From: Vampirovibrio sp.
Lineage (GTDB): Bacteria > Cyanobacteriota > Vampirovibrionia > Vampirovibrionales > Vampirovibrionaceae
Direction: 5' to 3'
Assembly (NCBI RefSeq): GCF_041737375.1
Contig: NZ_JBGSRV010000006.1
Location: 134,022 to 198,021 of the forward strand
Length of the DNA stretch: 64,000 nucleotides
The position numbers and the translations under genes are program-made. Positions 1-25,383 of this stretch are shown in pieces. Every line of letters starts with the position of its first letter. The first letter of the stretch is position 1. Below the pieces are notes generated by a model. The model had not been told where the DNA came from and made no database searches. It was given only the letters and a program-made list of their open reading frames with translations.

Positions 1-514
1 CAATCCTACCGAGTGGCATGGCACCAAGGGTTTGGTTAAAGAACCCGATATGCCCACCGCTGAACGAAACGTGGAATTTGATTTGGCCAGCTTTCCTACC
101 CCTTGGTCATTTCAGCCTTTTACGTTTAGCCAGCAAAGCAAAGAATATACGTTTAAGCACTTTCAAGCCAGTAAAATTCCGGGTTTTGTCGTTCGATTGC
201 CTGAAGACAAAGACGGAAAACCGGATTTTCTGGTAGTCAGCCGGATTTGCCCTCACATGGGCTGTGTGTTTAACTTTTTGCCGGATCCTGCGGAGGCAGC
301 GGCTTATAACTATCCTTCCGCCAACAATCCTTTATTCGCTTGTCCTTGCCACTTGAGCGTTTACGATCCGCTTCAGTCTCAGGATGTGAGCGGTAAGTTA
401 TTGGCCGGAAAAGTGGTGAGTGGGCCTGCTCCTCGTCCGCCCAGACAGTTTCAGTTCGATATGGTAGGCTCCAAGCTGGTTATTACCACGCTTGAGGCAG
501 GAGGTATCGCCTAA
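1..514 (+). CDS. Rieske [2Fe-2S] iron-sulfur protein, probably N-terminally truncated by the window edge
   Basis: Both Rieske cluster boxes are present in the ORF (CPHMGC ... CPCHLSVYD). No N-terminal TM anchor is visible, so the gene likely starts upstream of the window. Its stop abuts the start of the cytochrome b gene (taa atg). Confidence 0.8.
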   Translation, partial: NPTEWHGTKGLVKEPDMPTAERNVEFDLASFPTPWSFQPFTFSQQSKEYTFKHFQASKIPGFVVRLPEDKDGKPDFLVVSRICPHMGCVFNFLPDPAEAAAYNYPSANNPLFACPCHLSVYDPLQSQDVSGKLLAGKVVSGPAPRPPRQFQFDMVGSKLVITTLEAGGIA

Positions 515-2017
515 ATGGTAGCCACAAATTCTTTTGACCCCAAAGCACTCCCTGCTCAAGCCGTTAATTGGCTGAAAGAGCGGGTTCAGAAAATCGATCT
601 TTTTGATGAAACCAAAGTCGATTTACAAGCACAGTCTCCCTGGTACCAGTTGGGCGCCTTGTATTACTTGTGCTGGGTTTTGGTTCTCATTACGGGCGTT
701 ATTCTGGTTGCTATCTATCTACCGACCACCGCTCAGGCTTTTAACTCGGTGGATATTATCTCTCACAACGCCTGGGGTTCTATTTTAAGGGGAATGCATA
801 AGTATAGTGGCGACGCCATGATTATCGCCGCTACCCTTCGGGTCTACCGCATGTGGTTTACGGCTGAATACAAAAATAAGGGTGAGTTAACTTTTATTTT
901 GGGTATTTTGTTGTTGGTTATAGCCATGTATTCAGGCTTGAGTGGGTATTTGCTGATTTGGAACCAGCGGGCTTTTTGGGCCACTAAGGTTTTCGCTACA
1001 TTCCCCACCTACCTGGACATTACACCCGCTAACTGGACCTGGCCTTGGGATTTTGCCAATTACAAGGGTTCCTGGTTTATTCCCAACGCGGTTGGGGCGG
1101 TTACCCAGTTAATTGGTAATTTAACCCATCAAGGGTTCAGCACCTCTCAAATTTTAATGGGAGGAAGTTCTATTGGTCAGGCTACCATGACCCGTTTTTA
1201 CTCTCTGCACTTCGCATTATCTTTAATTTTGCTGGTGATTTCTGAAATTTATTTCTACAAAAATCGTTTGAAGCGCATCAACCTCAAAAAACCTTTGGTG
1301 CTTCTGGTGATTGCCATGTTGGTTGTAACCGCCATTATTTTCCCCGCGGAATCTGGTACGCGCGCCAACCCTGAAGTAACCCCTCTGCCTATTTTGTCAG
1401 ACTGGTACTTCCTGGCCTTATACCAATTGCTGAAATACATGGATCCTTACTGGGCCACACTTTGGACTTTGGGTATTCCTTTTGTAACCATTGGTTTGAC
1501 TTTTTTAGATTTTGGTCCTGAGCGCAACTGGTTGAAGCGCCCATTGTTTACAACCATTGGCATTATGGCGGCCATTGAGTTTATGGTGTTCTCCATGTTG
1601 ATTATCGCCAACATGGCTAACATTGAAACGGATCCGCCTTACTGGTTTGGCCATTTGATTTTGATGATCACTATTGGACAGTTCTGGCATTGGAGCATGT
1701 ATAAACAACGTCTTCCAATGACTGTGTGGATGTTATTTAACCTGGCTGCCAGTACGTTTTATCTCTTTTTCTGGCACTTGGTGGTGGAAAACTCCAAGCT
1801 GGCTGGCGCTTTTGGTGGTCACAGCATGATTGCCTGGTTTGAAATGATGTTCCATGGTGCTGCTGTGGGTATTGATTTCACCAACCTGTACTGGAATCTG
1901 CTGTGGTTTGGCTATTCCATCGCACAGATTCTGTTGGCTGCCTTCTTGTTTTGGGTAGACCGGGCTCGTCGTGATGAACGCGCAGGCACCTTGCAACCTG
2001 AAGGAGTGACTGCTTAA
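515..2017 (+). CDS. Cytochrome b (fused cyt b6 + subunit IV-like, with C-terminal extra TM helices)
   Basis: The N-terminal half aligns to cyt b6 helix B-D motifs (GMHKYSGDAMIIAATLRVYRMWF, RFYSLHF). The middle matches the PetD/subunit-IV PEWY-like region (PILSDWYFLALYQLLKY). About 150 further hydrophobic residues follow. It overlaps the next ORF by 1 nt. Confidence 0.8.
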   Translation: MVATNSFDPKALPAQAVNWLKERVQKIDLFDETKVDLQAQSPWYQLGALYYLCWVLVLITGVILVAIYLPTTAQAFNSVDIISHNAWGSILRGMHKYSGDAMIIAATLRVYRMWFTAEYKNKGELTFILGILLLVIAMYSGLSGYLLIWNQRAFWATKVFATFPTYLDITPANWTWPWDFANYKGSWFIPNAVGAVTQLIGNLTHQGFSTSQILMGGSSIGQATMTRFYSLHFALSLILLVISEIYFYKNRLKRINLKKPLVLLVIAMLVVTAIIFPAESGTRANPEVTPLPILSDWYFLALYQLLKYMDPYWATLWTLGIPFVTIGLTFLDFGPERNWLKRPLFTTIGIMAAIEFMVFSMLIIANMANIETDPPYWFGHLILMITIGQFWHWSMYKQRLPMTVWMLFNLAASTFYLFFWHLVVENSKLAGAFGGHSMIAWFEMMFHGAAVGIDFTNLYWNLLWFGYSIAQILLAAFLFWVDRARRDERAGTLQPEGVTA

Positions 2018-2343
2018 TGCCAACCACTTTTTCTAAAAGTGATAGGGAGAAGCCTTTAAATCGGCCAATGTGGTGGTTTTTCTTTCTAATCGCTACGGTT
2101 GCTGCATCGTTTGGCTTCAGGACATTTGGGGCTTTTACCTTGCGTCCGAATCTTTTGAACGCTTTTGTCTGGGCATTGGTAATGGTGCTATTGTTTGTTT
2201 CCATTGCGGTATTGGCTTACGACAGCTACGTTCATGAAAAAGGAAAAGGCAATGTGCAGAAGCCAGTCAGACTTTTTGAATGGATGATTCGGCGTGGTTT
2301 TTTGCTGAGCGTTCGTGCTGAAGATAAAGGAATTACACAATGA
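2017..2343 (+). CDS. Small integral membrane protein (2-3 TM), unknown function, translationally coupled in the cyt b operon
   Basis: Hydrophobic 108-aa ORF. Its start overlaps the cyt b stop (taATG) and its end overlaps the next ORF (ATGA). Confidence 0.45.
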   Translation: MPTTFSKSDREKPLNRPMWWFFFLIATVAASFGFRTFGAFTLRPNLLNAFVWALVMVLLFVSIAVLAYDSYVHEKGKGNVQKPVRLFEWMIRRGFLLSVRAEDKGITQ

Positions 2344-2651
2344 ATGTGTTGAAACGTTATTGGAGAGACCTGGCCGCTCTGCTGATTGCGGTTGTTTCTT
2401 TGGCTGGCCTATGGGTCATGTTTAGTGCCGAAGGTAGCATTTGGCTGGTTAAATTTGTTAATGGCAAACCCCAAGAGCTTTTGGAGCCGGTTGCCATATT
2501 GACTCAGTACAATAAAGTCATTCTTCCCAACCTGCAAAAGTATAGTTGGGCCATTGGCCTGACTTTATTTGCGGTCAGCGTTTCCTATATTTTGCTCGGC
2601 TCGCAAGATGAAATCTATACTGCACTGGATGAGCCGAATTCCAAGAAATAG
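2340..2651 (+). CDS. Small integral membrane protein (2 TM), unknown function
   Basis: 103-aa ORF with two hydrophobic segments and an ATGA overlap with the upstream ORF. Confidence 0.45.
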   Translation: MNVLKRYWRDLAALLIAVVSLAGLWVMFSAEGSIWLVKFVNGKPQELLEPVAILTQYNKVILPNLQKYSWAIGLTLFAVSVSYILLGSQDEIYTALDEPNSKK

Positions 2652-2675
2652 ACGAGCTAAAAAGGAGCCAAGCCC

Positions 2676-3821
2676 GTGTATACCGAACCGTTACAAAAAG
2701 CGACTTTGTGGTTAGAAAAGGGTTTAAATGACCTTTTTTCCCAAAAATATAACCCTTTCTATTATCACGGAGCGTTACCCAACTTTTTTATCTGGGCTTT
2801 GTTTATATCCGGATTGCTTTTGTTTGCTTATTACCAGCCAACACTTGCCACCGCTTACGCCTCTGTCCGATACATTACTTTTGAGCTTCCTTTTGGGAAC
2901 CTCTTTCGTTCTATTCACCGGTACGCCAGTGACGGGATGATGATTTTCGTCATGCTACACATGTTCAGGGTTTGGTTCACCGATCGCTACCGGGAATACC
3001 GCATTGTGCCTTGGGTGACTGGTGTGGTTTTGTTAATCATTACCTTTACCATTGGTTTAACTGGCTATCTGCTAATTTGGGACCAAGAAGCTGTTACCCT
3101 TGCCAATATGACCTTTAACCTGGTGAGCAAGACCCCTTTAATTGGCAGCGCGGTGGCCGAGTTTTTAATTGCCGGTAAAATGATTACCGATTACACGCTG
3201 ACCCGGATGATGTTTTTGCACTTGGGCATTCCCTTGTTCATGATGTTTATGTTGTGGTTACACTACCTGCGTATTACACGGCCGGTTTCAGAGCCTCCTT
3301 TGGCTTTGGTGGTTATGCTGTCGGGTGTTTTGTTTCTTTTTTCAGCGGCCTTTCCGGTTAGTTTGCAAATACTGAACGCCAATGACCCTTTGGCGACCCC
3401 TTCCTTAACCTCTGTCAGCTCTGTGATGAATTTTGATTTGTTGTACGCTTGGCCCCAGTATCTGGCCGCTCAACAAGTGGATCCTTTGCTGGTTGTGCTT
3501 TTGGTGTTGGCTGTTCCGGTCGGGTTGCTTATTTTGCCTTATTTGCAAAAGAAAGCCTTGCGTGATCAGTTTGCAACCGTTGTTCGTGAGAATTGCACGG
3601 GTTGCTCGCTTTGCTATAACGATTGCCCTTATGAGGCCATTGAAATGGTTGATCGTGGCAACGATGGCACACGTTTCAAGCGGCTGGCCGTTGTGGATCC
3701 GGGTCGTTGCGCAAACTGTGGCCTGTGTGTTGGTGCTTGCGCCTTTAAGGCTATTGAAATCCCCCGGCGCGAAACCAACAACGTGTTAGCTGAAATCGAA
3801 GCCGCTTTGACCACTTCTTAA
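2676..3821 (+). CDS. Di-heme cytochrome b N-terminal domain fused to a C-terminal 2x[4Fe-4S] ferredoxin domain
   Basis: Helix-B His pair (IHRYASDGMMIFVMLHMFRVW) and helix-D His pair (FLHLG...WLHYLR) are both at 14-residue spacing. The C-terminus has CTGCSLCYNDCP and CANCGLCVGACA 4Fe-4S motifs. Confidence 0.75.
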   Translation: MYTEPLQKATLWLEKGLNDLFSQKYNPFYYHGALPNFFIWALFISGLLLFAYYQPTLATAYASVRYITFELPFGNLFRSIHRYASDGMMIFVMLHMFRVWFTDRYREYRIVPWVTGVVLLIITFTIGLTGYLLIWDQEAVTLANMTFNLVSKTPLIGSAVAEFLIAGKMITDYTLTRMMFLHLGIPLFMMFMLWLHYLRITRPVSEPPLALVVMLSGVLFLFSAAFPVSLQILNANDPLATPSLTSVSSVMNFDLLYAWPQYLAAQQVDPLLVVLLVLAVPVGLLILPYLQKKALRDQFATVVRENCTGCSLCYNDCPYEAIEMVDRGNDGTRFKRLAVVDPGRCANCGLCVGACAFKAIEIPRRETNNVLAEIEAALTTS

Positions 3822-3833
3822 GAAGGAAAAAGA

Positions 3834-4265
3834 GTGATGACTACTGACAATACAAAACTAATCGGCCTGGTCTGCGAGCGAAGCGTGGATTTTGAAGGCA
3901 AGCTTGATGAACAAGGCAACATGACCGATCATCCTTCTGTCAAAATTATCCGGGTACCTTGTAGCGGTCAAATCCAGCCCATCATGCTGGAAACCGCGTT
4001 AAAAAACGGGGCCAGTGGTACGTTTGCATTGGGCTGCCGGATGGGTGATTGCCACTACCGTGAAGGCAATAAGTTTTGCCGCGATCGGCTGGTGGGCAAG
4101 CGCATGCCTAAGCTTAAGCCCAGCGTAGACAAGCGCAGAGTTCAAGGCTATTGGCTTTCTGCGGTTGAGTACGACAAATTAAGCGAAATGGTTGGTCAAT
4201 TTGTAGAGGATTGCAAAGCATTGCCAGCTCCTGAAGTTAAATCGACCGCTAAGGCAGCGAAGTAA
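3834..4265 (+). CDS. MvhD/FlpD-like [2Fe-2S] electron-transfer protein (methyl-viologen-reducing hydrogenase delta-subunit family)
   Basis: Signature IIRVPCSGQ ... ALGCRMGDCHYREGN ... FCRDR matches the MvhD GC.xGDCHYxxGN cysteine pattern. It starts 12 nt after the cyt b-ferredoxin gene. Confidence 0.7.
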   Translation: MMTTDNTKLIGLVCERSVDFEGKLDEQGNMTDHPSVKIIRVPCSGQIQPIMLETALKNGASGTFALGCRMGDCHYREGNKFCRDRLVGKRMPKLKPSVDKRRVQGYWLSAVEYDKLSEMVGQFVEDCKALPAPEVKSTAKAAK

Positions 4266-4278
4266 GGCATAGGAAGAG

Positions 4279-4395
4279 ATGGATATGGAAGAACGCAAGG
4301 ATATTACGCTTTTCATCAAATATGTCTGGTTTTTTCTCTTTTACTTCGCTTTGATCTTATTGATCGCCAGCTTTGGTATCATTGCAGAGAGCTAG
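4279..4395 (+). CDS. Unannotated 38-aa single-TM peptide (MDMEERKDITLFIKYVWFFLFYFALILLIASFGIIAES)
   Basis: ATG at 4279 is preceded by aggaagag, and the in-frame TAG is at 4393. The ORF lies between mvhD-like and the next membrane protein. Its size and topology resemble the small subunits of b6f-type complexes. Confidence 0.4.
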   Translation: MDMEERKDITLFIKYVWFFLFYFALILLIASFGIIAES

Positions 4396-4411
4396 ATAGG
4401 AGAAGAAGCGT

Positions 4412-4876
4412 ATGTCTAATCATCCAGACCCGCATGAAGGCCATCATTTTGATGTGACTAACGCTGAAGGGCGTTTTCATTGGTTTTTTAAAGAGTTTTG
4501 GCCCATTATTTTGCCGGGCTCGTGCTTTTTGCTTTTGTGCGCCATTCCATTAACCCTGTCCGGGATGCTGCACAATTATTTTAGTGCCTCCGATGTTGTG
4601 TGGGGCGGCTATGGACTTTTATTGATTGCAGAATTCCTGGTGGCGATTGTCATTGTTTGTTTGTTGCCCCATTTACTCGGTGTTTATATGTTGCTGTTGG
4701 CCATTTACGGGCTGGTGCTTGCTGAAAACGGCAATGCCTGGAAGGTGGGCTTTATTAGCGACGGGCATAACACCTGGATGATTAGCAGCATTGCGATTTT
4801 GTTTTTAACTTATCTGGCAATCGGAAATCTGGTTTTCCTGAATTCTTTGCGTAATCAAAGAAAAAGTCGCTTGTAA
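4412..4876 (+). CDS. Integral membrane protein (4 TM) with His-rich N-terminus, unknown function
   Basis: 154-aa hydrophobic ORF with an RBS (ggagaag) upstream. It is the last gene of the putative respiratory operon. Confidence 0.45.
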   Translation: MSNHPDPHEGHHFDVTNAEGRFHWFFKEFWPIILPGSCFLLLCAIPLTLSGMLHNYFSASDVVWGGYGLLLIAEFLVAIVIVCLLPHLLGVYMLLLAIYGLVLAENGNAWKVGFISDGHNTWMISSIAILFLTYLAIGNLVFLNSLRNQRKSRL

Positions 4877-4950
4877 GCGCAATTATTTTTGTGCTACAAA
4901 GGTACCTTAATCTGTGTGTCCATGTGAAAAACTAGGAGATTCCCCTTTCT

Positions 4951-5265
4951 ATGGTTAAGATTCGTTTGAAGCGTCAAGGCCGCAAACACCGTCCGTTTTA
5001 CCGGATCGTGGTTACCGATATTCGCAATCGTCGCGATGGTGCGCCTTTGTCTGAGTTGGGGTACTACAATCCAATCTCCAAAGAATTAAAACTGGACAAG
5101 CAAGCTGCTTTGGACTGGATTAGCAAAGGCGCTCAGCCTAGTGATACCGCTAAAAAGCTGATTGAAAAAGCTGATGAAGGTGGAAACCTGATTAAGCTTG
5201 AGTCAGTTAAGCGGGACAAGCTTTCTAAGAAAGCGGCTGAAAAAGCGAAAGCTACCGCCGAGTAG
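4951..5265 (+). CDS. rpsP: 30S ribosomal protein S16
   Basis: [30 protein letters not shown] is the canonical S16 N-terminus, with a lysine/alanine-rich tail. Confidence 0.9.
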
Positions 5266-5294
5266 TTTTTGCTGCCATCAATCTCGATCATTAA

Positions 5295-5323
5295 AAGAGG
5301 CCTAACAACAGGCCTCTTTTTTA
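5295..5323. terminator. Rho-independent terminator (agaggcc-N8-ggcctct + T-run) between convergent rpsP and the secreted-protein operon
   Basis: Perfect 7-bp stem followed by TTTTTT. A-rich on the 5' side, so it may act bidirectionally. Confidence 0.6.
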
Positions 5324-5360
5324 ATGGGAGTTACAACTTTTGCTTAACTAGCAAACTAAA

Positions 5361-6269
5361 TTAGTTGCCCAGGCTGACGTTTTTTGGGCTTGACTGGTCC
5401 AAAGCGGCAATGGCGGTAGGGCCTACCACTCCACTTAAGGCGGATCGGTTGCTGCTCAGGGCCTGCTCGGCATTCTGAACCTCCTGACGGGCTGATTCCA
5501 TCAGGGATTGCATTAAGGGCTTCAGGGCCTCGGTATCTTTGGTGCTTTTTAATTCGGCCTGCTCGCCGTACTTCAGCATGGTGCTTTGTGCTTCTTGAGC
5601 CAGGCTAAGTCTTTCTTTAGAGTGTTTGTAATTGTAGTACAGGGTGATCAGCTGATTCTGCAGCTCTTCTACTTCTTTGGCCAAAATCACCATATCGGCG
5701 TCAGTCACTCTGGCCAGCGCAGAATCGGTGGGGTTGCCACTCATCAAATCCTGAATCATGCCTGAACCAATCAATCCGGCAGGCGTTCCGGTCCACATAC
5801 TGCCCGCTACACCGCCCAGATGGACCAGACTGCCCAGCATTCGTTTGGAAAAGTTATCGCCTTCCACAGGCTTACCGGTTGCGTCCCTGCGGGACAGTTT
5901 TTCAATGGCGTAGCGAATGGTTCCGCTGCGCTCTACCGCCGCTTCCCAAAGCATGCCGATGTCAGTTAGCGCAAGTTCTTCCTCGTCCCGGACTTCGTTG
6001 TAGATGGTTTTGTCTTCTTGCTCCATATTCTCCGCAAGCTGGTTCATGTTTTTACGGGTTTCGGGGTCCAGCTTTTTGGCGACTTCGTTAATTTCTTTTT
6101 TGGCCGCTTCATCTAAAATGGGCTTGGGTTCAACGGCATGCGTTTTTGAAGATTTGGCGGAAGCTGCCGCTGGCTTGGCTTTGCCTTGTGCCAAAGCACT
6201 AAACGGCAGGCTGATGGCGGTTACCAGTATCAAACTCAGGGCCAAAACCTGTTGGTTGGTTTTTTTCAT
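5361..6269 (-). CDS. Secreted (signal peptide) coiled-coil protein, paralog of the upstream gene; unknown function
   Basis: N-terminal signal MKKTNQQVLALSLILVTAISLPFSALA. It shares a block with the 6266..7525 product (LWEAAVERSGTIRYAIEKL vs LWEATIQKNPVIRFSLEKL, plus following Gly/Met-rich and coiled-coil segments). Confidence 0.45.
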   Translation of the reverse strand: MKKTNQQVLALSLILVTAISLPFSALAQGKAKPAAASAKSSKTHAVEPKPILDEAAKKEINEVAKKLDPETRKNMNQLAENMEQEDKTIYNEVRDEEELALTDIGMLWEAAVERSGTIRYAIEKLSRRDATGKPVEGDNFSKRMLGSLVHLGGVAGSMWTGTPAGLIGSGMIQDLMSGNPTDSALARVTDADMVILAKEVEELQNQLITLYYNYKHSKERLSLAQEAQSTMLKYGEQAELKSTKDTEALKPLMQSLMESARQEVQNAEQALSSNRSALSGVVGPTAIAALDQSSPKNVSLGN

Positions 6270-7525
6270 TGAAACGGGTTCTCCGGGTTTTCTGGCCCTG
6301 CGTTGTGGGTAGCCTGTGAAATATTGAGCGGCTCAATGTGTCTGCTTTCTTGCAGGTGAGGGCCGATTTCCATGGGCTGTGGCAGTTCGTATTTTTTGAA
6401 ATTTTTGTTGTTCTGCACGGTCTTTTTCGGCGTCTTAATCTTGGCGGGCGGAAGTTCCGGGCCAACCATTTCCGTGATTCTGGCGGTGTTGTGGGGTGCG
6501 GCGGTTTCAATGGGCAAGGGGCCTACCAAATCCTCGGATCCAGAGCGGTTGTTGGTCGGCGCGGCGCTTGCTGTGCTGGTGTTTTCAGAGACATGGACGG
6601 CTAACTCCAGTCGGTTAACAGCTTCGGGTCCAGCCAGCCGCTCCAGTTGCACACGGTTTAATTTTGCTTTTTGCCGCAAGGCCGTTTCACTGAGAACCGA
6701 CTGATAGTAGGCGGCTCCTGAGGCCATAATGGCCAAATCGTTTTTGGAGGATAGGGCTTTGGCGTAAATGGCGTTGTTTTTAACGGTCACTTGATGGCTT
6801 TGGGCCAGATTTTGCAAGGTATTTTTGTAATCCTGATAGCTGTGTATCAGTCGCAGTTTCAGTTCATCAATGAGGCTGGCCAGCTGAATTTGCTCTGTAG
6901 CGGACAGGCTGCCTACATTGACCTGGGTTTTACCATTCACCATATTTTGCAAGGCGTTCCCCATGGCCATACTGCCCATGTTTTGGTATACGCTGGCGCC
7001 GGGTAACATGGCGGGAACCATGGTGGCTCCTGAAATCAGCATATTCAGGGTTTTGGTCATAAACCGGCTGGATTGCTTGGTTTGTAGATCGCTGGGGGTG
7101 GCCAGTTTTTCCAAAGAGAAGCGAATGACCGGATTTTTCTGGATAGTGGCTTCCCACAGAGATTCCAAATCGGCTTCATCTACCCTTCTCTGGATTTCCA
7201 GCAAGTTTTCCAGTTGATCGGTTTTAATGTGTACGCTTAAGTCTGTATTGAGCTTTTCTATTTTGGGTGAGGCTTGTAAAACCGGGCTTTGAACGGCGGA
7301 CAAGGCCACAGGCTCCAGTAAGTCCTCACTGCCTGACTCCACGCTTTCAACCAGCTTGGCGTTAATACTGGCCACGGGGGGTAAAAAATCTCGCTCTACC
7401 AAGCCTTTTTGGGCAGGATTTGCCGCAAAGCTACTATTAACTTGAGTAAACAGAATGCTGGCCGCCAAAACGACTCCCATCCATGATTTAACAGGCGAGG
7501 TGGCTGGTGCAGTCGTTTTACTCAT
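6266..7525 (-). CDS. Secreted (signal peptide) protein, tandem paralog of 5361..6269; unknown function
   Basis: Signal peptide, then a Pro-rich N-terminal region. Its C-terminal 250 aa are colinear with the downstream paralog, and the genes overlap by 4 nt (operon). Confidence 0.45.
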   Translation of the reverse strand: MSKTTAPATSPVKSWMGVVLAASILFTQVNSSFAANPAQKGLVERDFLPPVASINAKLVESVESGSEDLLEPVALSAVQSPVLQASPKIEKLNTDLSVHIKTDQLENLLEIQRRVDEADLESLWEATIQKNPVIRFSLEKLATPSDLQTKQSSRFMTKTLNMLISGATMVPAMLPGASVYQNMGSMAMGNALQNMVNGKTQVNVGSLSATEQIQLASLIDELKLRLIHSYQDYKNTLQNLAQSHQVTVKNNAIYAKALSSKNDLAIMASGAAYYQSVLSETALRQKAKLNRVQLERLAGPEAVNRLELAVHVSENTSTASAAPTNNRSGSEDLVGPLPIETAAPHNTARITEMVGPELPPAKIKTPKKTVQNNKNFKKYELPQPMEIGPHLQESRHIEPLNISQATHNAGPENPENPFQ

Positions 7526-7712
7526 CGCGCGATTGGCCTTGTATTTCAGGGGTGCTGGATCCGAATCTGAATAAAGATATTATCCCAATAAAACCGGCCA
7601 ACGGCGACCGATTTCTGAGAGGCTCTATATTCTTCGTAAAAATTAACAAGCCCCTGCTTGTTGAACGTGCGTTTTGTGAGTTAGGACGGGGATTTGGTCA
7701 ATGGGTTCCCAC

Positions 7713-8378
7713 TTACCACTGAGTGACCTCACCGGGGGTTTGAATCACTTGCATGCTGTTTAAATCGCTGGCGTAGTAGTTGCCTGGTTGAATCATGGCG
7801 TCGGAATCATGCCCTTTGCAAGCATAGTGGCCGGGATGCTCCTCTTCCACGAGTTCCAGCTTTGCCAGTTGGCCCATGCCTTTGTGGGCATAGCGATCAA
7901 AAATCATCAGGCGCAAGGGGCCGCCGTGTATGGCGGGCAGGGTTTTACCACTGGCTCTTACGCAAAACAAGGCCCGTTGTGTATATAGGTCTTTCAACGG
8001 CAAATATTCCACATGCCCGCATAAATTGGTTTGCTTGAGGTATTTGGCTTCTGGCTGGGGGCAAACCCGGTGCAACAGTTCTTGCACCACAAAGCCTTCC
8101 CAGGTGTCGCGGTAGGTGTAGCCATCCGCGAATACCAGCCGTCTGTTTTGCTGGATACGGGTAAATTGGGCAAAATCTTTCAAAGAAAAGCTTTGGGGCT
8201 TGTCAACCAGCCCACTCACTTCCATGGCCCATTGGTTTAAATCAACGCTTTTATAACCATCCATATAGCTGGCAGGCCAGTTGGGGAATGGGTTATTGGA
8301 CTTAACGCCCAGCTGGTCCGGCTTATCGGTAACGGAACCCAAGGTTTGATTGTGAAGACTGTAAAACATGAGGCTCAT
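7713..8378 (-). CDS. Molybdopterin-dependent oxidoreductase, sulfite-oxidase family (MsrP/YedY-like catalytic domain)
   Basis: HGGPLRLMI and the surrounding pattern match the Oxidored_molyb domain. No TAT signal is evident. Confidence 0.5.
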   Translation of the reverse strand: MSLMFYSLHNQTLGSVTDKPDQLGVKSNNPFPNWPASYMDGYKSVDLNQWAMEVSGLVDKPQSFSLKDFAQFTRIQQNRRLVFADGYTYRDTWEGFVVQELLHRVCPQPEAKYLKQTNLCGHVEYLPLKDLYTQRALFCVRASGKTLPAIHGGPLRLMIFDRYAHKGMGQLAKLELVEEEHPGHYACKGHDSDAMIQPGNYYASDLNSMQVIQTPGEVTQW

Positions 8379-24360: not shown

Positions 24361-25383
24361 TTAGAGGCGCCGGTCTGCGGATCGGCTTTGAAATGCCTGT
24401 GTGATTTGGGTGGCCACCGCTAGCGCCTCTGGTTCGTTCAGATTCCAGACCGCTTGCCGAGCCACGGTTCCCATGCCCGCCCCGGCGATCCATTGATAAG
24501 GCGCTTGTTGCAGCAGGCAAGCTGTTTGTTGGTTAATCCCCCCGGAAATGGTTATGGGAGGCGCTTGTAAGTTGTTTTTCTCAAAAATATGTCTGGCTCT
24601 CACTGCTGCTTCCAAGGCGGGCAAGGAAGCTTCCAAGTGCGTGGTTCCCGACATGGGGAGTCCGTCTATCTGGAGCAGTATGGGCATAGCATGGCGCCGC
24701 TGGGCGGTTTGCACAAAGCTCAGTACTTGCGGGTCATCGGGCTGGTCCAGCCGAAAGCAAAGCGCTACGAGCTTATTGTGTAATAAATGTCCCCAGCGAT
24801 TTAAAAAAGCCTCCAGCATATAGGCATCCACAAAGTGGCTATGGATTTCCACGGCTTCGGTGGCCGGATGCTTCAGCGCTGCTTCAATCTGACTTTCCAC
24901 CTGAAAGGGCAGCAATCGTAAGGCATCGGTGGGGCAGGTGGGAACGCATCGCCCGCAGCCATAACATAGATTTTGAGACACTTCCAGCGCACTGGACAGG
25001 GTAAAGGCTTCTGTGGGACAAACCGGCAGGCAAAGTCCGCAGCCAATGCAGTCGGCTTCGGTCAGTTCGATTTTTCGGAAATGCGGGTCGGCATCCAGTG
25101 GAATGCTGACCATGATCACCGGTTTTGGGCCTTGTACCGATTGCACCGCCCGCCATACGGTTTCAATCAGGGCTGCATCGGGGGCAATGTCAATGCAATC
25201 GACCCCGGCTCGACTGTAGATGTTGCTGAGCTGGGCGATTTTATCCCCTTCCGTAAAGCTACCGCCCCCAATCAGTTTAAAAAAGCGGCGCTCATCCAGC
25301 GCACGAACCATGCGGGCTTGGCTTTCGCTGAGCGAGGGGGGGGATTGGGGTTGGGGTAATGGGAATGCGGAAAATGTCATCAT
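24361..25383 (-). CDS. Iron-sulfur protein with two CxxCxxCxxxCP [4Fe-4S] motifs (LdpA-like)
   Basis: KLIGGGS region, then CIGCGLCLPVCP and CYGCGRCVPTCP. The architecture resembles the cyanobacterial LdpA family; the name assignment is from memory and unverified. Confidence 0.45.
   Translation of the reverse strand: MMTFSAFPLPQPQSPPSLSESQARMVRALDERRFFKLIGGGSFTEGDKIAQLSNIYSRAGVDCIDIAPDAALIETVWRAVQSVQGPKPVIMVSIPLDADPHFRKIELTEADCIGCGLCLPVCPTEAFTLSSALEVSQNLCYGCGRCVPTCPTDALRLLPFQVESQIEAALKHPATEAVEIHSHFVDAYMLEAFLNRWGHLLHNKLVALCFRLDQPDDPQVLSFVQTAQRRHAMPILLQIDGLPMSGTTHLEASLPALEAAVRARHIFEKNNLQAPPITISGGINQQTACLLQQAPYQWIAGAGMGTVARQAVWNLNEPEALAVATQITQAFQSRSADRRL

Follow-up and report, generated by a model that had tools for sequence, protein, structure and literature searches.

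In all Rieske/cytochrome b complexes, as far as is known, a Q cycle with two haems and two quinone sites is taken to be the unvarying core. The operon considered here has two unlike cytochromes b, and it lies at one end of a 64,000-nucleotide stretch of DNA from Vampirovibrio sp. (contig NZ_JBGSRV010000006.1), the whole of which is called the window below. Aerobic Vampirovibrionia (Melainabacteria) have a complex III-IV operon of 13 genes, and bases 1-4876 of the window cover its distal two-thirds. One of its cytochromes b, termed b1, bears a quinol-oxidizing (Qo) site motif and has lost the usual ligands of haem bH. The other, b2, keeps all four haem ligands, is fused to a 2x[4Fe-4S] ferredoxin domain and is followed by the gene for an MvhD/FlpD-type [2Fe-2S] protein.

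As a locus, the operon is already known. A bioRxiv preprint (10.1101/531145) summarizes the complex III-IV operon of aerobic Melainabacteria (Soo 2017). Melainabacteria oxygen reductases next to petB/petC have been reported (Matheus Carnevali et al. 2019; PMC6349859), as have complexes I-IV and a cbb3 oxidase in V. chlorellavorus (PMC4451040). The available portions of these three sources (PMC6349859, 10.1101/531145 and PMC4451040) make no mention of bH-ligand loss, of a second cytochrome b-ferredoxin fusion or of an FlpD gene. A literature search for Rieske, heme-copper or cytochrome b proteins with MvhD/FlpD found no description of the architecture beyond a single row in PMC8756737, where one fused Chloroflexi protein is listed in an appendix table without comment. 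Three aspects seem to be undescribed: the loss of the bH ligands from b1, the presence of b2 with its ferredoxin domain and MvhD protein, and the occurrence of a fused b2-FlpD form beside heme-copper oxidases.

Organization of the operon

The full order of the operon is ccoN, ccoO-cytochrome c, ccoS, p58, dihaem cytochrome c, Rieske, cytochrome b1, two small transmembrane (TM) proteins, cytochrome b2::2x[4Fe-4S], MvhD-like [2Fe-2S] protein, p38 and p154. The first five genes (ccoN to dihaem cytochrome c) were read in relatives only. For the remainder, an earlier note made from the letters of the window had listed eight open reading frames (ORFs) on the + strand. All eight were found, with the same coordinates:

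2..514 (+), Rieske [2Fe-2S] subunit, 3' part of the gene (Pfam Rieske; frame open from base 2)
515..2017 (+), cytochrome b1, a b6-like N-domain and a subunit-IV-like C-domain in one chain (Pfam)
2017..2343 (+), sm108, small membrane protein, overlapping the cytochrome b1 stop codon (TAATG)
2340..2651 (+), sm103, small membrane protein, with an ATGA overlap with sm108
2676..3821 (+), cytochrome b2 with a C-terminal 2x[4Fe-4S] ferredoxin domain (Pfam, NCBIfam)
3834..4265 (+), MvhD/FlpD-type [2Fe-2S] protein, cytoplasmic, start possibly the ATG at 3837 (Pfam FlpD)
4279..4395 (+), p38, single-TM peptide of 38 residues (hydropathy; the gene caller used on locus L001 starts at the equivalent of 4285)
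4412..4876 (+), p154, multi-TM protein of 154 residues and last gene of the operon (homologues in part of the Vampirovibrionales)

The genes are packed as tightly as the note had claimed. The junctions overlap or abut at TAA-ATG (512-517), TAATG (2015-2019) and ATGA (2340-2343), and the other ORFs are 12-24 nucleotides apart. Promoter-like and terminator-like sites inside the cluster are in no excess over shuffled sequence. Pfam and NCBIfam searches of each ORF also agree with the domain calls made in the note, including FlpD in 3834..4265 and Cytochrome_B in 2676..3821.

The upstream flank and the c-type cytochrome

Where would a complex of this kind send its electrons? The earlier note suggested a complex III variant that feeds low-potential soluble iron-sulphur (FeS) carriers rather than a c-type cytochrome. 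It observed that there is no cytochrome c1 or f gene in the window. This is literally true, and no other cytochrome c gene is found within the 64 kb either. The only matches in a scan of the window for CxxCH are short ORFs and a 382-residue open frame at ~12414, the place that a DnaJ-family gene has in locus L002. However, the Rieske reading frame runs on without a stop as far as base 2, which means that the start of the window cuts the gene. The absence of a cytochrome c is therefore very probably an edge artefact.

The relatives supply the missing flank. In every syntenic relative with enough upstream sequence (~30 loci) the order is ccoN, ccoO-cytochrome c, ccoS, a small ORF, dihaem cytochrome c and Rieske. 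Here ccoN is of the COX1 family, ccoO is fused to an extra cytochrome c domain, ccoS is of the ccoS/FixS type and the small ORF has 58 codons. The dihaem cytochrome c (350-390 residues, lipoprotein-like) is encoded directly upstream of the Rieske protein in the same orientation, and its motifs CVKCH and CAVCH are conserved in 31-32 of 32 sequences. Since the relatives have ccoNO and the dihaem c upstream, the locus is to be identified with the complex III-IV (cbb3) operon reported earlier for Melainabacteria, and is in all likelihood not a cytochrome-c-less complex. The earlier note had itself held that a c1/f-type cytochrome immediately upstream, in a cluster matching a known bc-complex subtype, would speak against it, and the first of these two, a c-type cytochrome, is what the relatives have there. 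Its proposal that electrons go to FeS carriers rather than to a c-type cytochrome is not supported, and a cytochrome-c-less complex III now has next to no credibility in our view. Going by the relatives, the operon encodes a Rieske/cytochrome b quinol oxidase that is genetically hard-wired to a cbb3 oxygen reductase.

Locus L002 is a contig with a cytochrome b2 that is 95% identical to that of the window, and its operon order is the same as in L003 and ~30 further loci. Vampirovibrio chlorellavorus NCIMB 11383 (L005) is syntenic and its cytochrome b2-ferredoxin protein is 91% identical. Overall, the genes of the window are collinear with those of L002-L016, L018 and L020-L036, which belong to the Vampirovibrionales and Obscuribacterales, and the full gene order in relatives ends with FlpD, p38, (p154) and rpsP. 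In L002, CcoO (FixO, 4614..5654) has an additional mono-haem cytochrome c domain at its C-terminus, and no separate CcoP gene was seen in the operon of that locus.

In the truncated Rieske gene of the window, Pfam Rieske matches 32..514 with 22.3 bits against a cut-off of 20.3, and the cluster-binding boxes CPHMGC and CPCHLSVY are present. Across 33 homologues, the boxes CPH[ML]GC and CPCH[LF]SV[YF] are invariant. About 46 N-terminal codons are missing, including a Tat-like signal and the membrane anchor; full-length relatives have 216-221 residues (216 in L002) and a twin-arginine-like N-terminus, NRRxFLK.

Cytochrome b1 keeps the ligands of one haem

Cytochrome b1 matches Pfam Cytochrome_B (1.1e-24) and Cytochrom_B_C (2.4e-06). 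The earlier note had called it a full-length cytochrome b with b6 and subunit IV fused. Both domains are indeed joined in one chain, but both canonical ligands of haem bH/bn are missing. Aligned with cytochrome b6 structures, b1 keeps the first histidine of helix B and the first of helix D, the pair that binds the p-side haem bL/bp. The second helix-B histidine is replaced by arginine and the second helix-D histidine by tyrosine, and these are the ligand positions of the n-side haem bH/bn. Thus, the four-histidine feature of bc-type cytochromes b is only half kept (2/4) in the Qo-bearing b1 and is complete in b2. The Qo site of b1 has the motif SDWY, invariant in 35 sequences.

The substitutions are not peculiar to the window. 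The ligand pattern H-(R/K)-H-Y is found in 34/34 loci from the Vampirovibrionales, the Obscuribacterales and one metagenome-assembled genome (MAG) labelled Chloroflexota; the gene is readable in 33 of these loci, L001 being without the helix-B region. A decaying pseudogene was considered and ruled out, since two orders show strong conservation of the protein, at the substituted positions as well as elsewhere. The family is also confined. A HMMER scan of 1.84 billion cluster representatives yielded only 29 representatives of Arg-variant b1 at E<=1e-30. Representatives with H-(R/K) in helix B reach to about E 1e-24 and have SDWY or xDWY, and the next 111 best matches after the b1 family are canonical cytochromes b with HHHH and PEWY. 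Cytochrome b1 thus belongs to a small discrete family. It is a conserved variant under selection, and haem bL is the only haem that it is predicted to bind.

The company that b1 keeps is constant. Wherever the downstream flank is readable (34 loci and L086), Arg-variant b1 is followed by b2 and FlpD, to which it is therefore linked. A distant member (47% identity) in L086 lies inside the same full operon order. In L087, b1 is followed by two ORFs of 84 residues and then by a cut gene, the contig ending within the third ORF.

Cytochrome b2 and its iron-sulphur domains

Cytochrome b2 matches Pfam Cytochrome_B (4.8e-33) and Fer4_7 (4.7e-10), the latter a 4Fe-4S dicluster domain. Among 63 b2 sequences, the four haem histidines are invariant, with both pairs spaced H-x13-H, and the eight cysteines of the two CxxCxxCxxxC motifs are invariant or nearly so. 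In a profile-profile comparison, TM5, the following loop and TM6 of b2 match helix E, the ef loop and helix F of b1 (hhalign probability 92%, E 5e-7). The ef loop itself is degenerate. It reads FDLLY, with D254 at the acidic position of PEWY and an Asp there in at least 90% of aligned sequences, and fused relatives of b2 in Proteobacteria have LDWFY at this position.

Structure prediction is consistent with these assignments. An AlphaFold2 model of b2 built from 31 sequences (pLDDT 83.7, pTM 0.81) is compact, with six long membrane helices and a ferredoxin fold. In Foldseek, ~290 columns of the model align to the full-length cytochrome b of bc1 complexes, and no chain joining cytochrome b with a ferredoxin domain was found in the PDB. 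Cytochromes b of the b6 type have their N-terminus on the n-side. With an n-side N-terminus, six TM helices and a C-terminal tail containing 12 K/R, the FeS domain of b2 is therefore placed in the cytoplasm.

The next gene in the operon continues the chain of clusters. Pfam FlpD matches 3834..4265 at 1.2e-23 (83.8 bits against a gathering cut-off of 22.3), and of 69 homologues, 66-69 retain the [2Fe-2S] ligands C14, C43, C68 and C73. Neither a signal sequence nor a TM segment was found in the protein. The ferredoxin domain of b2 and the FlpD protein match consecutive parts of HdrA2, residues 571-642 and 652-772. Judged by sequence, the cytoplasmic part looks like the C-terminal ferredoxin domain of HdrA together with MvhD, and no HdrA or Mvh hydrogenase genes are present among the operon genes of the window, L002 and L003. 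In sum, b2 has helices A-F and both haem sites, together with a cytoplasmic chain of two [4Fe-4S] clusters and then one [2Fe-2S] cluster. The central observation of the earlier note, a bc-type cytochrome b with cytoplasmic FeS domains and an MvhD-like protein that does not match textbook bc1 or b6f, is borne out.

Four small proteins accompany this machinery (sm108, sm103, p38 and p154). They match no significant Pfam family, PetG, PetL, PetM and PetN included. A hydropathy scan finds one to three strong hydrophobic segments in three of the small proteins, two in sm103 and one in p38. The last agrees with the note's description of a 38-residue TM peptide, whereas for p154 there are fewer strong segments than the four TM helices it proposed. 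Homologues of sm108 occupy the same position in Vampirovibrionales loci, sm103 is conserved more weakly in that order, and the same slot in L086 and L087 holds two small ORFs (86/85 and 84/84 residues). It is likely that sm108 and sm103 are extra subunits. p38 is conserved directly after FlpD in the Vampirovibrionales, the Obscuribacterales and L027. p154 has homologues in L002, L004-L015, L018, L020 and L021 and is absent from L003/L016 and the Obscuribacterales.

A proposed route for the second electron

Without haem bH or a Qi site in b1, an electron arriving on its haem bL would need another outlet, and the only other b haems encoded by the operon are in b2. In bc1, two cytochromes b dimerize with their bL haems within electron-transfer distance, and electrons reportedly do pass from bL to bL between monomers, as along a "bus-bar". 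What if b1 and b2 were paired as the monomers are in a bc1 dimer? In such a hetero-oligomer, quinol would be oxidized at the Qo site of b1. The first electron would pass through the Rieske protein and the dihaem c to the cbb3 oxidase and O2. The second would move from haem bL of b1 to haem bL and then haem bH of b2, crossing the membrane, and onward through the two [4Fe-4S] clusters and the [2Fe-2S] cluster to a cytoplasmic acceptor. This is the model that we favour, tentatively, and we would put its chances somewhat short of even.

The FeS wire could also run in reverse, carrying electrons from a cytoplasmic reductant to the oxidase. Reverse flow fits better with two observations from other bacteria described below, the heme-copper oxidase contexts that lack a Rieske gene and a paralogue fused to an FNR-like module.

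The module in other phyla

In other phyla, cytochrome b, ferredoxin and FlpD form one polypeptide of ~510-720 residues, sometimes longer. This fused form was found in Rhodospirillales, Delta- and Zetaproteobacteria, Burkholderiaceae, Gemmatimonadota, Acidimicrobiia, Chloroflexota, Myxococcota, Acidobacteriota and Spirochaetales, and cultured Burkholderiales are among its hosts. Proteins of this form are named [quoted passage not shown]. In tblastn searches the fused proteins are 28-34% identical to b2 over residues ~6-380, with FlpD encoded further along the same ORF. A single chain of this kind (a Rosetta-stone fusion) shows that b2 and FlpD work together. The family is large, with 5538 proteins at E<=1e-10 among 8000 candidates scored, and a model of the fused protein has a pTM of 0.76.

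The genomic setting of the fused gene is a different one. A survey of the neighbourhoods of MvhD homologues next to cytochrome b found heme-copper oxidase clusters rather than Rieske/cytochrome b genes. The conserved cluster consists of a COX2-like gene, COX1, (UbiA), SCO1/SenC, the cytochrome b-Fd-FlpD gene (Fd standing for the ferredoxin domain), an ORF of 170 codons and hemerythrin, without Rieske or b1 (L083/L084, 5834..11520; L085, 4838..11465; also L038 and L039). NirS, NosR/ApbE or Crp-type genes are often nearby. These contexts were read from Pfam scans and pre-annotated contigs. A 172-residue protein encoded 3' of the fused gene in Proteobacteria was considered as a counterpart of p154, and this was ruled out because the two have no similarity. 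In a Zetaproteobacteria MAG (L040, 3992..7254) the fused gene is present in two tandem copies.

The order norSY-senC-orf1 is that of the published sNOR cluster of ammonia oxidizers (PMC4940428, PMC4964001, PMC3764937), a family described in PMC11214002. The orf1 product may be the fused cytochrome b-Fd-FlpD protein, to judge from the matching gene order only. Among the matches of the Burkholderiaceae query for the fused family there are no Nitrosomonas names.

The position of the fused gene between SCO1/SenC, a copper chaperone, and UbiA, which is heme O synthase-like, near hemerythrin-like genes, invites another explanation. Perhaps b2-Fd-FlpD has no catalytic part in electron transfer and instead serves heme-copper oxidases in maturation, repair or sensing. 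It might, for instance, be a CcoG-like reductase that provides Cu(I) or reduces a cofactor during assembly. CcoG, a membrane protein with 2x[4Fe-4S], is reported to be a cupric reductase for cbb3 assembly, and the Vampirovibrionia operon, as seen in relatives, does include the maturation gene ccoS/FixS. However, the b2 gene stands in the midst of translationally coupled structural genes, and a di-haem transmembrane wire with a Qo-like loop and a near-invariant Asp is elaborate for a chaperone. Furthermore, there is no homology to CcoG, and Pfam finds no match to domains of the Fer4_5 or Fer4_18 type. A role of this sort strikes us as improbable.

One machine or two?

A more serious challenge to a b1:b2 complex is that the operon might encode two independent machines. 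The Rieske protein, mono-haem b1 and dihaem c would then be a quinol:cytochrome c oxidoreductase with a broken Q cycle that sends both electrons to the high-potential chain. Separately, b2-Fd-FlpD would be an accessory of heme-copper oxidases in general. It would take electrons from ferredoxin or a similar donor in the cytoplasm and move them across the membrane to the donor site that the oxidase has on the p-side. The clusters of COX2, COX1 and SCO1/SenC(-UbiA) that contain the fused gene and neither Rieske nor b1 are as this explanation would have them, and in two MAGs of the Vampirovibrionales (L017 and L019) b2-Fd-FlpD stands alone. It occurs without b1 and Rieske and by itself, and so is not intrinsically part of a complex III. 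The Burkholderiaceae paralogue with an FNR-like fusion points to electron flow from the cytoplasm to the membrane. Lastly, the engineered Chlamydomonas QiKO b6f, without haems bH and ci, still oxidizes quinol and supports growth (PMC3112540), which shows that b1 could work without an outlet.

Against this, Arg-variant b1 always precedes b2 and FlpD in the readable flanks (and L087 begins in the same way). If haem bL has no outlet, it is hard to see why b1 should so strictly keep both of its ligands. Finally, moving electrons from the n-side to the p-side dissipates the membrane potential. We regard two separate machines as rather unlikely, though deserving serious consideration.

The b1:b2 complex in turn has several points to answer. 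Thermodynamically, it is demanding to pass an electron from quinol to low-potential FeS clusters against the membrane potential. The operon encodes no HdrA, FNR or hydrogenase that could be the cytoplasmic partner, and none was seen among the window ORFs examined. In addition, b2-FlpD occurs beside other heme-copper oxidases without b1 or Rieske and, in L017 and L019, b2-FlpD-p38 lies away from oxidase genes. There may also be a non-canonical, Tyr-ligated haem at the bH site of b1. All of these weigh against the favoured model to some degree.

Two of the loci mentioned above have features of their own. In L017 (9044..13866) and L019, b2-Fd, FlpD and p38 are found downstream of split rpoC1/rpoC2 and a 241-residue protein without a Pfam match. 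In a Burkholderiaceae MAG (L045, 4166..6268, -) a cytochrome b N-domain is fused to Fer2, FAD_binding_6 and NAD_binding_1, an FNR-like NAD(P)H module, and the gene is 3.5 kb from the cytochrome b-Fd-FlpD gene.

Implications

If the b1:b2 complex is real, a wider picture can be drawn: a natural heterodimeric complex III acting as a quinone-based electron-bifurcating module on a high-affinity oxidase, with the same wire widespread in heme-copper O2 and NO reductases, including sNOR. It is an attractive picture, and as a whole we think it doubtful. Even so, here is a natural lineage in which the bH ligands have been deleted from the Qo subunit and a second, FeS-wired cytochrome b has been recruited. 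It offers a natural test case, where otherwise there are engineered mutants, for inter-monomer electron transfer, for the dispensability of the Q cycle and for quinol oxidation that feeds the cytoplasm. Vampirovibrionia are the sister class of the oxygenic cyanobacteria, and the operon bears on the evolution of b6f and of its n-side link to ferredoxin. The fused module lies next to heme-copper oxidase and NOR-like genes, probably including the sNOR of nitrifiers, and may matter for respiration relevant to N2O. Experiments are feasible, as there are cultured hosts: V. chlorellavorus and, for the fused gene, Zeimonas arvi, Quisquiliibacterium transsilvanicum and Burkholderiaceae FT117.

Other loci in the window

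Three further loci are worth recording. At 24361..25383 (-) is a gene for a 340-residue 2x[4Fe-4S] protein with Pfam LdpA_Fe-S-bd and LdpA_C, a homologue in the non-photosynthetic Vampirovibrio of LdpA, the redox sensor of cyanobacterial circadian input. The stretch ~54000..58000 has a GC content of 0.38-0.40, compared with ~0.49 elsewhere, and holds genes for an ankyrin-repeat protein (54010..55128, -) and a ClpB-like AAA protein (55993..57663, -). It may be an acquired island or an effector locus in this Chlorella predator. Just beyond the operon, at 5361..8378 (-), a 221-residue protein with a molybdopterin-oxidoreductase domain (7713..8378) adjoins two Pfam-less ORFs (5361..6269 and 6266..7525). 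In L002 and L003, these three genes come after rpsP.

Comparison with known systems

The closest described system is the Melainabacteria complex III-IV operon, which is the same locus, with genes for a C-family (cbb3) oxidase contiguous with Rieske and cytochrome b. Among characterized complexes, the nearest are bc1/bcc-type complexes with a dihaem cytochrome c, and bc1-cbb3 supercomplexes (for example PDB 8smr, 7q21, 6hwh). In contrast to these, the Qo-bearing cytochrome b of Vampirovibrio is without bH ligands, and there is a second cytochrome b that lacks helices G-H and has cytoplasmic FeS domains.

There is also a likeness to cytochrome b6f. The best PDB sequence match of both b1 (1e-27) and b2 (1e-31) is a cyanobacterial or plastid cytochrome b6. 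However, the heme-ci cysteine (Cys35 of b6) is absent, the aligned residue being Q in b1 and Y in b2. Moreover, the b6 and subunit IV parts of b1 form one chain, cytochrome f is absent, and helix D of b2 has the H-x13-H spacing of bc1.

The cytoplasmic part is comparable with MvhD and HdrA2. The FlpD fold family and its four cysteines are common to them, and the ferredoxin-FlpD arrangement is collinear with HdrA2 residues ~571-772. Here, though, there is no HdrA flavoprotein core, HdrBC or Mvh hydrogenase, and the upstream partner is a membrane cytochrome b. The earlier note had likened the cytochrome b-FeS fusion to QmoC and HdrE-C. This is useful as a working analogy, but membership in the QmoC/HdrE family is ruled out because the membrane part is a PF00033 bc-type cytochrome b and not one of the NarI/HdrE type. 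As for the sNOR-type fused proteins, b2 and FlpD are homologous to them over the full length at ~30-34% identity, but in Vampirovibrio the protein is split between two genes and travels with a cbb3 oxidase and Rieske/b1.

Further comparisons are with Rieske/cytochrome b systems in which the low-potential electron from the Qo site is not passed back to a Qi site. Rieske/cytochrome b complexes of anammox bacteria are said to have NAD(P)-oxidoreductase subunits, and the difference there lies in the FAD/FeS NAD(P) oxidoreductase and the multihaem c subunits. The QiKO b6f is the other such system. There the ligand was knocked out by engineering, whereas in the Vampirovibrionia the ligands have been lost naturally and a second cytochrome b is present.

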